Sequence record: PP079212.1 | From: Escherichia phage phiHAO2-2 | DNA: 39,299 nucleotides | Reading direction: 5' to 3' (one strand) | Shown here: positions 28,455 through 31,700 of the stretch, one piece after another | How positions within the stretch are numbered: position 1 is the stretch's first letter | Layout of the letters: every line of letters begins with the position of its first letter | Notes under the pieces: model-generated | What the model was told of the DNA's origin: nothing | What the model saw: the letters and a program-made list of their open reading frames with translations, nothing else | Databases searched by the model: none | Made by a program: the position numbers and the translations under genes

Positions 28455-28751
28455 ATGGCGACTCGTGGTATTCGCAATAACAATCCGGGTAACATCCGGG
28501 TAAGTAAGGACCAATGGGAAGGAATGACTGGAGATGATGGCACATTCGTCACCTTCGATAGTCCAGAGTCTGGCGTCCGAGCTTTAGGTAAAAACCTGCT
28601 GTCCTACGGTCGCCGAGGTTATGACTCCATCGAGAAGATTATCAACCGATGGGCACCTCCTAACGAGAACGACACTAAGGCTTATATCGACTCAGTGGTG
28701 GCTGCAACTGGTATTCCAGCTACCCAGAGTTCTAGACCTATCGGATCCTGA
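28455..28751 (+). CDS. Internal virion protein D (gp16), N-terminal segment before the frame break
   Basis: ATG 28455 preceded by TAAGGAGT. This frame ends at TGA 28749-28751 while the protein-like sequence continues in the +1 frame. Carries the motif RNNNPGNIR. Confidence 0.6.
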   Translation: MATRGIRNNNPGNIRVSKDQWEGMTGDDGTFVTFDSPESGVRALGKNLLSYGRRGYDSIEKIINRWAPPNENDTKAYIDSVVAATGIPATQSSRPIGS

Positions 28752-31700
28752 CACCCTGTCTTCTCTGGCTCAAGCTATAAGCTTCCATGAGACAGGCTCC
28801 CGGTACGACCCTGAAGTCTATCAGAAGGGAGTCGCACGAGCACTCAATGGCATAACCCCAAAGACTCCACCAGTAAGCGCTAACGTATTTGACGCACTCA
28901 CGGAAGGACTCAAGGCTAAACCTAAAGTAGCTCTGGGCGAGAACCTTCCGACCGCTGCTGGTCTAAACATTGAGGGTCAAGCACCTGAAGCTCCCAACGA
29001 ATCGTTCGGTGAGATGTTCTATAAGTCTACTGGCGAGACCATGCAGGAACGAGAGGATCGCTCTACGTGGTTCGGTTTCGGCTCGGCTACAGAAGCTGAA
29101 GTGAAGAACTCTATGGTCGGTGTGGCTATCCGCGCTGGTCAGACCGAGGACTCACTTGATGTCATTGGCGATGTGTTCAACCCTACCCGCTGGAACAACC
29201 ATAAGTGGTCTCGTGAGGAGCTGGACCAGATTCGTAACGCTGGAGTTCTCCCTCAGTATTACGGTGTCATTACTGGTGGCTCCCCTCAGAACCTGACCGA
29301 GCTTATTAACTTAGCGCTTGAGAACCAGAAGTTGGACCAAGAGAAGGCCAAGGCTGGGACTGGTGCTCAGTTAGCTGCTGGTGTGATTGGCGCTGGTGTG
29401 GACCCTCTGACCTACGTTCCTATCGCTGGACAGATTGGTAAGGGTGGCAAGCTGGTCAACAAGATGTTCACCGTGGCTGCTCAATCTGGAGCACTTGCTG
29501 GTGTATCAGAGATGGCCCGTACCTCAGTGGCTGGTGGTGATGCTCATGTGGCTGAGGCTATCCTTGGCGGTGCTCTCTTCGGTGGAGGTATGACTGCTAT
29601 CGCTGATGGTTTAGGCAGAGCCTTAGGTCGTAACACTAACGAGTTCGCTGGACCAGCCATACGTCTGGAAGCTCGTGAGACAGCCCGTAACGTTGATGGT
29701 CAGGACCTGTCTCGTCTACCTATTCAAGAAGGTGAGGAGACCTTTAGTCATCAAGGCGTTAAGTTCGCTGACGTTCCGAATGAGCCGGGTAGTGTACGAC
29801 TGGAAGATGGTTCAATCCTGATTGGTGAAAACCCTCTGAACCCTAAGACACGTCAAGTCTTTGACGAAGTGATTGAGCCAGAACGTGCCGCTGCTGGTGT
29901 GAACCTTGGTGGACTTACCGAGATTGGCCTGAAGCTGCTTCGGTCTGAGAACCCAGAGATTCGTGGAGTCGCTGCTGACTTAGTGCGTTCACCAACCGGT
30001 ATGCAGTCAGGGGCCTCAGGTAAAATCGGGACCACTGCGTCAGACGTATTCGAGAGACTTCGTGCTGTGGACCATCGGTTCTACAACGACATCGACGATG
30101 CGGTTACTGAGGCACTAAAGGACCCATACTTCCAGACAGCATTCTGGCGAGACTCTGGCGCATTCCGTCAGGACATCTACCAGCGTGTGTCTATGGCTAT
30201 TGAAGACGGAAGTGGGAACCTGAAGGCTGAACTTACTCCGGGAGAACTGAAAGTCTATGACCTGCTGAAGAACCAGTTTGACGCCAAGCGTGAGATGATG
30301 GAGAACCCGGCGATGTTTGGTCGTCCAGACGCTCAGTCTATCTTTCCGGGTAGCCGCTTCAAGGGAACCTACGTCCCTCATGTGTATAGCAAACAGATGA
30401 AGGAGCTGTACATCAAGGAGCTTGGGAGTCCAGAGGCGTTGCAGGAGGCCATCAAGAAGTCATGGTTGACCAGCTATGCGTCTCGACCTGAGGTCAAGAA
30501 ACGTGTGGACGAGGCACTCTTAGAGGCTGACCCTACGTTGACTCCAGAGGGACTTGCTGCTGCGGTCGATAAGTACGCCAACGATAAGGCTTACGGTATC
30601 TCCCACACCGAGCAGTTCGAACGTTCATCCGTAATGGAAGAGAACATCAACGGTCTGGTTGGTCTGGAGAACAACAGCTTCCTTGAGGCTCGTAACCTGT
30701 TCGATAGCGATATGTCAATCGTCCTACCTAACGGTCAGACCTTCAGTGTCAACAACCTACGTGAGTGGGACATGGACAAGATTGTCCCGGCCTACAACCG
30801 TCGAGTTAATGGCGATATTGCTATCATGGCTGGTACAGGCAAAACCACGAAGGACATGAAGGACTTGGTTGAGACCATGATGAACAAGGCTGGGGATGAC
30901 GGTAAGTTGAAAGGTGAAGTATCTACCTTACGTGACACCTTGAAGATTCTAACAGGTCGTGCTCGACGTGATGGTGCTGATGATGCAGCCTTCGCTACCG
31001 TGATGCGCACAATGACAGACCTATCGTTCTTCGCTAAGAATGCCTACATGGGTGTTCAGAACTTAACGGAGATTGGTGGTATGCTGGCTCGTGGCAACGT
31101 TCGTGCAATGCTGCATGGAGTCCCGATTTTCCGTGACCTAGCCTTCCGTAACAAGAAGGTTGGGGCCTCAGAGATTAAGGACCTGCATAATGTTATCTTC
31201 GGTAAGGAACTGGATGACTCAATCCGTCCGTCTAAACAGGATGTCATTGACCGTCTGCGATCTTACAGTGACCTCGGTCGTGGTACAGCTACAGCTCTGG
31301 GGACTGCCAAGTATTACACTGGCGAACTTGCAGTACGCTCTCCGTTCACTAAAGTCCTCAACGGTACGACCAACTACCTGTTAGATGCTGGACGTCAAGG
31401 CTTCCTGTCTGACATCGTGGAGCATAGCCTGACTGGTAGTAAGCGTAAGTTCGATGACCGCTGGCTGAAGACCGCTGGTATATCTGACGAGCAGTGGAAT
31501 GGTATTAAGTCCCTAATCCGTGAGTCAGTGACTCGTGGTCCAGACGGGAAGTATACCATCAAGGATAAGAAGGCGTTCAGTCAGGACCCAAGGGCTATGG
31601 ACCTATGGCGTATGGGTGACACCATCGCTGACGAAACGTTACTACGTCCTCATAAGCTGTCCAACATGGACGCAAAGGCTTATGGTCCTCTAGCTAAGAC

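Follow-up and report, generated by a model that had tools for sequence, protein, structure and literature searches.

A probable Enc34-type muralytic domain in the position of the T7 transglycosylase wing in the frame-broken gp16 of a Kayfunavirus record

In phage T7, residues 1–156 of the internal virion protein gp16 form the lytic transglycosylase (LT) "wings" of the periplasmic gp15 tunnel, and residues 157–228 form the "molecular tape" by which gp15 is cemented; T7 needs its transglycosylase activity where murein is highly cross-linked (PMC8954989). A different muralytic domain is known from the ORF39 endolysin of Hafnia phage Enc34. Its catalytic domain, assigned to NCBI family PHA02564 by Cernooka et al. 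in 2022, lyses E. coli, P. aeruginosa, and H. alvei cells whose outer membrane has been permeabilised. The Enc34 fold is all-helical and resembles the lysozyme α-lobe, with the helix of the catalytic Glu permuted relative to GH23 (the family of the soluble lytic transglycosylases, SLT) and GH73. Glu131, Trp79, and Tyr95 are its proposed catalytic residues, and the domain has been argued to be an N-acetylglucosaminidase-type hydrolase (PMC8943055). Here we examine gp16 in the genome of Escherichia phage phiHAO2-2 (sequence record PP079212.1), a stretch of 39,299 nucleotides referred to below as the window. An original prediction, made from the letters alone, held that the first ~150 residues of this protein show no similarity to the T7 transglycosylase domain while the rest is gp16-like, and that another, possibly muralytic, module had been swapped in. 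Our analysis makes it very likely that gp16 residues ~1–131 are a peptidoglycan-cleaving glycosidase domain of the Enc34 ORF39/PHA02564 family that sits in the slot of the T7 SLT wing. This degree of confidence covers the explanation as a whole, that is, the identity of the module, its exchange, its proposed role, and an artefactual or engineered origin of a frame break in the gene.

DNA searches place the window within Kayfunavirus (K1F-like, with an endosialidase tailspike) and identify phage phiHAO1-1 as the closest record; the two share 97.5% identity in the first 25 kb and 99.1% where gp15 and gp16 join. The gp16 open reading frame (ORF) that starts with the ATG at 28455 translates to MATRGIRNNNPGNIRVSKDQWEGMTGDDGTFVTFDSPESGVRALGKNLL...WAPPNEN..., identical to the peptide given in the original prediction. 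For BLASTP comparison with T7 gp16 we used the intact gp16 of phiHAO1-1, whose first 92 residues are 100% identical to the window. Residues 125–1295 of this K1F-type gp16 align with T7 residues 152–1315 at 53% identity over 1182 columns, and residues 1–124 have no counterpart in T7 gp16. Pfam and NCBIfam scans covered the separate ORFs, the joined N-terminus, and the intact relative. T7 gp16, included as a positive control, matches the Pfam SLT family PF01464 over residues 15–127 (E 7.4e-31). In the K1F-type protein, no Pfam family scores at E ≤ 1 within the first 200 residues, nor does the N-terminus fit any NCBIfam model; PHROGs alone recognised the module. A profile of the K1F-type domain built from 45 sequences gave an hhalign probability of 0.13% (E 0.43) against T7 gp16 residues 1–150. 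BLASTP, Pfam, and hhalign thus agree on the predicted lack of similarity, and the premise of that prediction, that T7 gp16 starts with a lytic transglycosylase domain, was correct, as was the gp16-like character of the protein from residue 125 on. The predicted extent of the domain, 28455–28900, is right in part: the globular domain spans residues 1 to ~131 (28455–28848), and the remainder of the interval is linker.

The point at which homology is lost (K1F residue 125, T7 residue 152) matches the boundary between wing and tape in T7. As judged from the alignment, the exchange is limited to the globular enzymatic wing, with the gp15-binding tape kept. One could instead suppose that no modules were exchanged and that a T7-type SLT domain at the N-terminus diverged in place until it could no longer be recognised. 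A distant common ancestry of Enc34-type domains with GH23, which includes SLT, has been proposed (PMC8943055), and the sole hhalign alignment, which is non-significant, pairs the helix DSPESGVRALGKNLL with T7 LNPELAINAAAKQLA. Neither the hhalign probability nor the Pfam scan favours this idea, however, and the order of the catalytic elements speaks against it. The conserved Glu112 is close to the C-terminal end of the K1F-type domain and follows Trp66 and Tyr77, whereas in T7 the catalytic Glu37 lies near the N-terminal end, where the first helix finishes and ahead of the helices that bind substrate; point divergence cannot yield such a permuted order. Moreover, identity to T7 breaks off abruptly, exactly at the wing/tape boundary, and the domain is 40–56% identical to modules in unrelated proteins, while the gp16 body next to it shares 53% identity with T7. 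Given the permuted helices, the abrupt break, and the identity to modules of unrelated proteins, we reject divergence in place, which we regard as barely conceivable.

Searches of PHROGs and of PDB sequences instead identify the module as Enc34-type. Residues 2–175 of gp16 match phrog_873 ("endolysin") with an E value of 1e-55, and also phrog_992 ("head protein"), phrog_2276 ("tape measure protein"), phrog_7182 ("tail injection transglycosylase"), and phrog_1044 ("endolysin"). A phmmer search matched the Enc34 endolysin catalytic domain (PDB 7Q47, E 4.6e-15), with gp16 residues 3–122 aligned to residues 7–139 of chain 7q47_A. In this alignment Glu131 (HENG), Trp79, and Tyr95 of Enc34 correspond to Glu112 (HETG), Trp66 (RWAPP), and Tyr77 (KAYI) of gp16. 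Glu112 and Tyr77 do not vary among 45 homologues of 40–55% identity, and conservation of Trp66 is 90% or more; the N-terminal RGIRNNNPGNI motif is almost wholly conserved among homologues in this identity range. An AlphaFold2 model has a mean predicted local distance difference test score (pLDDT) of 85.7, with block means of at least 89 over residues 21–130, and places helices at residues 98–113 and 119–131; the predicted fold is mostly helical and of the 7Q47 type. Since the authors of the 7Q47 structure assigned it to PHA02564, we infer the same membership for the gp16 domain. With no SLT match in Pfam, NCBIfam, or hhalign and with PHROGs and 7Q47 matches in its place, the suggested swap to another, possibly muralytic, module is supported.

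Several points weigh against this assignment. The AlphaFold2 prediction was made on residues 1–151 of a 98%-identical homologue (P0121) that differs from the window domain at 3 positions, and no structure of lysozyme, GH23, or GH73 came up in fold searches. The case for a tie to the lysozyme superfamily, and hence for a glycosidase mechanism, comes from Cernooka et al. and from Enc34's own activity, and muralytic activity has been measured only for Enc34 ORF39 without its C-terminal transmembrane domain (PMC8943055). In addition, the window as written cannot encode an intact domain or a full-length gp16. A catalytically dead wing, acting only in structure or murein binding, which docks on gp15 or binds the cell wall, would also occupy this position, and catalysis is possibly under weak selection given that the LT activity of T7 is needed only with highly cross-linked murein (PMC8954989). 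We consider a dead wing improbable in view of the conservation of Glu112, Tyr77, Trp66, and the RGIRNNNPGNI motif described above, the activity of close family members as endolysins, and the retention of the family in hundreds of gp16 genes. A muralytic Enc34-type domain remains the explanation that we favour.

The domain is not peculiar to this phage. By tblastn, its 130 residues match 700 phage records, 223 of them with at least 60% identity; among the matches listed, the latter are gp16 genes of Kayfunavirus and allied phages, with Escherichia, Salmonella, Citrobacter, Enterobacter, and Dickeya as hosts. Below 60% identity the domain occurs in other contexts: in endolysins of the Seurat and Chi types, in Pseudomonas JBD-type phages and NO16-like tailless phages of Vibrio, in epsilon15 gp15, and in the tape measure protein of Pantoea phage PdC23, of which it forms the C-terminal end. 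For comparison, the T7-type SLT N-terminus is present in 1137 records. A profile search of 1.84 billion representative proteins found 17,887 clusters that carry the domain at E ≤ 1e-3, either as standalone proteins of 130–240 amino acids or as an N-terminal, internal, or C-terminal module in proteins of 500–1400 amino acids. With ~17,900 clusters at 50% identity, the family has yet no Pfam or NCBIfam model. The domain profile matches one protein of 762 amino acids (P0241) in four separate places, possibly tandem copies. Neither the domain family, characterised in 2022, nor a muralytic N-terminus on gp16 is new, and their combination is the norm for the whole genus. A literature search found no account of Enc34-type domains in gp16 proteins, and no paper stating explicitly that K1F-type gp16 has such a domain replacing SLT.

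Comparison with the described members shows what sets the gp16 domain apart. Enc34 ORF39 carries a transmembrane tail, which is not directly attached to the gp16 domain, and here the domain forms the N-terminus of a 1295-residue packaged ejection protein that would act at entry. The SLT wing of T7 gp16 (PF01464, catalytic Glu37; PDB 7EYB, 7K5C, and 6YT5) holds the same position in internal virion protein D, is followed by the same molecular tape and body, and presumably does the same job of opening murein for the ejectosome, but has no detectable sequence or profile similarity to the K1F-type domain. Closer in kind are PM2 P5, NO16 GP11, and the "peptidoglycan hydrolase" of Autolykiviridae, members of the same family that are carried in or with the virion and are proposed to digest murein at entry; P5 is labelled a structural protein in records, and GP11 has been found in the NO16 virion (PMC9502842, PMC13552765). 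These proteins, however, are small and standalone and belong to membrane-containing tailless phages, without fusion to a podovirus ejection protein; the NO16-like phages show ~40% identity to the K1F-type domain by tblastn. In Salmonella phage epsilon15, gp15 and its phiV10 and Tyrion homologues (PHROG 992) contain a ~52%-identical module in a large protein encoded among podovirus virion genes. There the module is internal (~266–378 of 842 residues in epsilon15 gp15) and the carrier is unrelated to T7 gp16. The nearest counterpart is Gp29 of bacteriophage E1004 (PDB 9VVP, "Core proteins of the bacteriophage E1004", released 2025-11-12), a gp16 orthologue of 1295 amino acids with the same Enc34-type N-terminus. 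In a sequence search of the PDB it is ~97% identical over gp16 residues 1–203, and its reading frame is intact, unlike that of the window gp16. The literature search turned up no paper associated with 9VVP or E1004.

These parallels suggest how the domain might act. From the T7 precedent (PMC8954989) and from the 97%-identical homologue in 9VVP, whose entry title names core proteins, we infer that gp16 is packaged in the virion core and ejected into the host envelope. By analogy with T7, it would lie in the internal core and leave through the tail after gp14 and gp15. The Enc34-type wing would then cut murein glycan strands locally so that the periplasmic tunnel of gp15 and gp16 can assemble, with Glu112 as the putative general acid and Trp66 and Tyr77 positioning the glycan. 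Its chemistry, by analogy with Enc34, is probably hydrolytic rather than lytic transglycosylation; the labels "lytic exotransglycosylase" and "transglycosylase" in related records are no evidence on this point because they were transferred from T7. As to origin, a Kayfunavirus ancestor very likely exchanged the globular enzymatic module alone, with the molecular tape and the remaining ejectosome protein staying T7-like.

In the window the domain is split, as the predicted frame break at this end of gp16 implied. Compared with every relative examined, a single extra T is present at 28730/28731. The first gp16 ORF stops at 28751 after 98 codons, and the remainder continues in the +1 frame from 28732. 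When phiHAO1-1 genes were searched against the window with tblastn, gp16 fell into frame 3 (query residues 1–92) and frame 1 (query residues 93–1295), the sole gene among those matched to be split over two frames. All other matching phiHAO1-1 genes lie in a single frame, which rules out generally poor sequence quality. The insertion falls between Tyr77 and Glu112, and because these residues are separated, neither gp16 product could be an active enzyme. This loss also tells against a biological break, be it programmed +1 frameshifting or the production of two polypeptides, a 98-residue N-terminal fragment and an internally restarted body. Such a break is present in the sequence as given, and an in-frame ATG at 28621 with GAGG upstream opens a long ORF. 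The extra T, however, is missing from all five aligned relatives, is shared by 0 of 153 phage records matching the stretch, and has no parallel in the 120 closest protein homologues, all of which are 1295 amino acids long. No slippery or prfB-like motif is visible at 28725–28751; with this and with the insertion private to the record, programmed frameshifting is very unlikely. The insertion also sits in a cluster of three private silent changes that create restriction sites, which points to manipulation. A biological break is accordingly very improbable, and the one-base insertion most probably arose through laboratory modification or through an error in sequencing or in the record, rather than by nature or as a programmed element.

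The three neighbouring changes are synonymous third-position substitutions, C>A at 28734, C>T at 28746, and C>A at 28779, which create XbaI, BamHI, and HindIII sites, respectively. The HindIII site ends 5 nt upstream of the codon for the putative catalytic Glu112. Relative to five relatives, the 6.2 kb of gp15 and gp16 contain 10 private differences, and four of these (the T insertion and the three substitutions) lie within 50 bp. Of 269 comparable substitutions elsewhere in the genome, 3 produce a recognition site for one of 18 common cloning enzymes and 14 produce a palindromic hexamer of any kind; from these background rates, the probability that three of three would create sites by chance is ~1e-6 to 1e-4. 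Even the best of the 153 related phage records are exactly four differences away from the window, and 0 of 153 share any of the four changes. IMG/VR, metagenome contigs, and GTDB genomes lack the mutant 24-mer, while IMG/VR does contain the wild-type 24-mer. Vector contamination as a source of the sites is ruled out by the native gp16 bases and spacing between them and by the nature of each change, one synonymous substitution at a third codon position. A patch acquired from another lineage by recombination is disfavoured, since none of the 153 records shares any of the changes and the mutant 24-mer is absent from IMG/VR, where the wild-type form occurs. Most probably, this stretch was modified in the laboratory, in which case the extra T is either a deliberate knockout or an error. 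Our literature search found no report of an engineered K1F gene 16 and no origin for the cluster. Nothing at the locus is truly odd apart from this engineered-looking frameshift cluster, which belongs to the record, not to the biology of the family.

Apart from the frame break, the locus is conventional. The order gp14-gp15-gp16-tailspike is that of T7, in the window as in its relatives (Table 1). Residues 93–1295 of the window gp16 are 99.7% identical to those of phiHAO1-1. In relatives, gp16 is an uninterrupted gene of 3888 nt encoding 1295 amino acids, and the protein of the intact relative matches PHROG 342 with E = 0. The search for gp16 homologues found 1512, and all 120 among the matches listed are 1295 amino acids long.

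Table 1 Features of the gp14–tailspike region, in window coordinates.
Feature	Position	Strand	Basis or remark
gp14	25569-26156		ORF
gp15	26168-28450		ORF
Shine-Dalgarno AAGGAG (28442-28447), gp15 stop TAA (28448-28450), gp16 start ATG (28455-28457)	28442-28457	+	Direct reading; relatives annotated with the same start
gp16	28455-32343		Broken by one-base insertion at 28730/28731
gp16 codons 1-92, first part of the probable Enc34-type muralytic domain; contains RGIRNNNPGNIR motif, W66 (TGG 28650-28652), Y77 (TAT 28683-28685)	28455-28730	+	100% identity to phiHAO1-1 gp16 1-92
TT where relatives have a single T; frame broken between codons 92 and 93	28730-28731	+	Alignments to five relatives
Three private synonymous substitutions: XbaI TCTAGA (28731-28736), BamHI GGATCC (28743-28748), HindIII AAGCTT (28779-28784)	28731-28784		
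gp16 codons 93-131, in frame +1 with respect to the start, remainder of the probable Enc34-type domain; contains helix 98-113 with putative catalytic Glu112 (GAG 28789-28791), HETG motif	28732-28848	+	
Rest of gp16 (internal virion protein D, ejectosome component), residues 93-1295 to stop	28732-32343	+	
gp16 residues ~125-203, weakly conserved linker corresponding to the T7 "molecular tape" (T7 152-225)	28827-29063	+	BLASTP; phmmer vs PDB 7EYB/6YT5
Endosialidase tailspike, 1064 aa	32408-35602		ORF

Other records of gp16 and the rest of the genome yielded further observations. The labels given to gp16 in relatives are inconsistent and partly wrong, among them "peptidoglycan lytic exotransglycosylase", "endo-type membrane-bound chitopentaose", and "hypothetical protein". 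The linear 39,300-bp record of vB_EcoP_F has no annotation of gp16; starting at ~35,995 and needing 3,888 nt, the gene would overrun the end of the permuted record. A gp16 (P0234) that is 98% identical to the Kayfunavirus protein is filed under "Staphylococcus phage MBBL139", where the host label is probably wrong or the sample contaminated. Relative to phiHAO1-1, the early region of the window is mosaic at ~1000–1900, 5600–7000, and ~22680. The DNA ligase is only 72% identical to that of phiHAO1-1, while most other genes reach 97–100%, and for phiHAO1-1 gp04, gp10 (dGTPase inhibitor), and gp39 no homologue was found in the window. In vB_EcoP_PR_Kaz2018 (MN510331.1, 12921–15690) the DNA polymerase gene is annotated in two parts, joined across an intervening homing endonuclease ORF; the phiHAO1-1 polymerase matches the window as one uninterrupted stretch, 12573–14741.

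These results call for a correction of annotation, as hundreds of Kayfunavirus records have taken over from T7 the name "lytic (exo)transglycosylase" or "transglycosylase" for gp16. K1F-type gp16 lacks the T7 SLT domain, and the domain found there is from a family in which endolysins, probably of the hydrolase type, are the only members characterised. That family is under-recognised, with ~17,900 clusters and no Pfam model. Users of the phiHAO2-2 record should know that its gp16 is frame-broken beside engineered-looking restriction sites. For the phages themselves, the N-terminus of K1F-type gp16 represents a clean, precisely bounded exchange of a module in an ejection protein, useful for engineering T7-like phages and for mining virion-associated lysins. 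More tentatively, and less likely than not, the wing of the T7-family ejectosome may be an interchangeable slot, with a hydrolytic occupant in K1F-type phages (possibly an N-acetylglucosaminidase) as opposed to the lytic transglycosylation of T7, and this genome may in addition be a deliberately engineered derivative in which the domain is split by a frameshift flanked by XbaI, BamHI, and HindIII sites. If that were true and such a phage viable, the whole wing and the normal initiation of gp16 would be dispensable.

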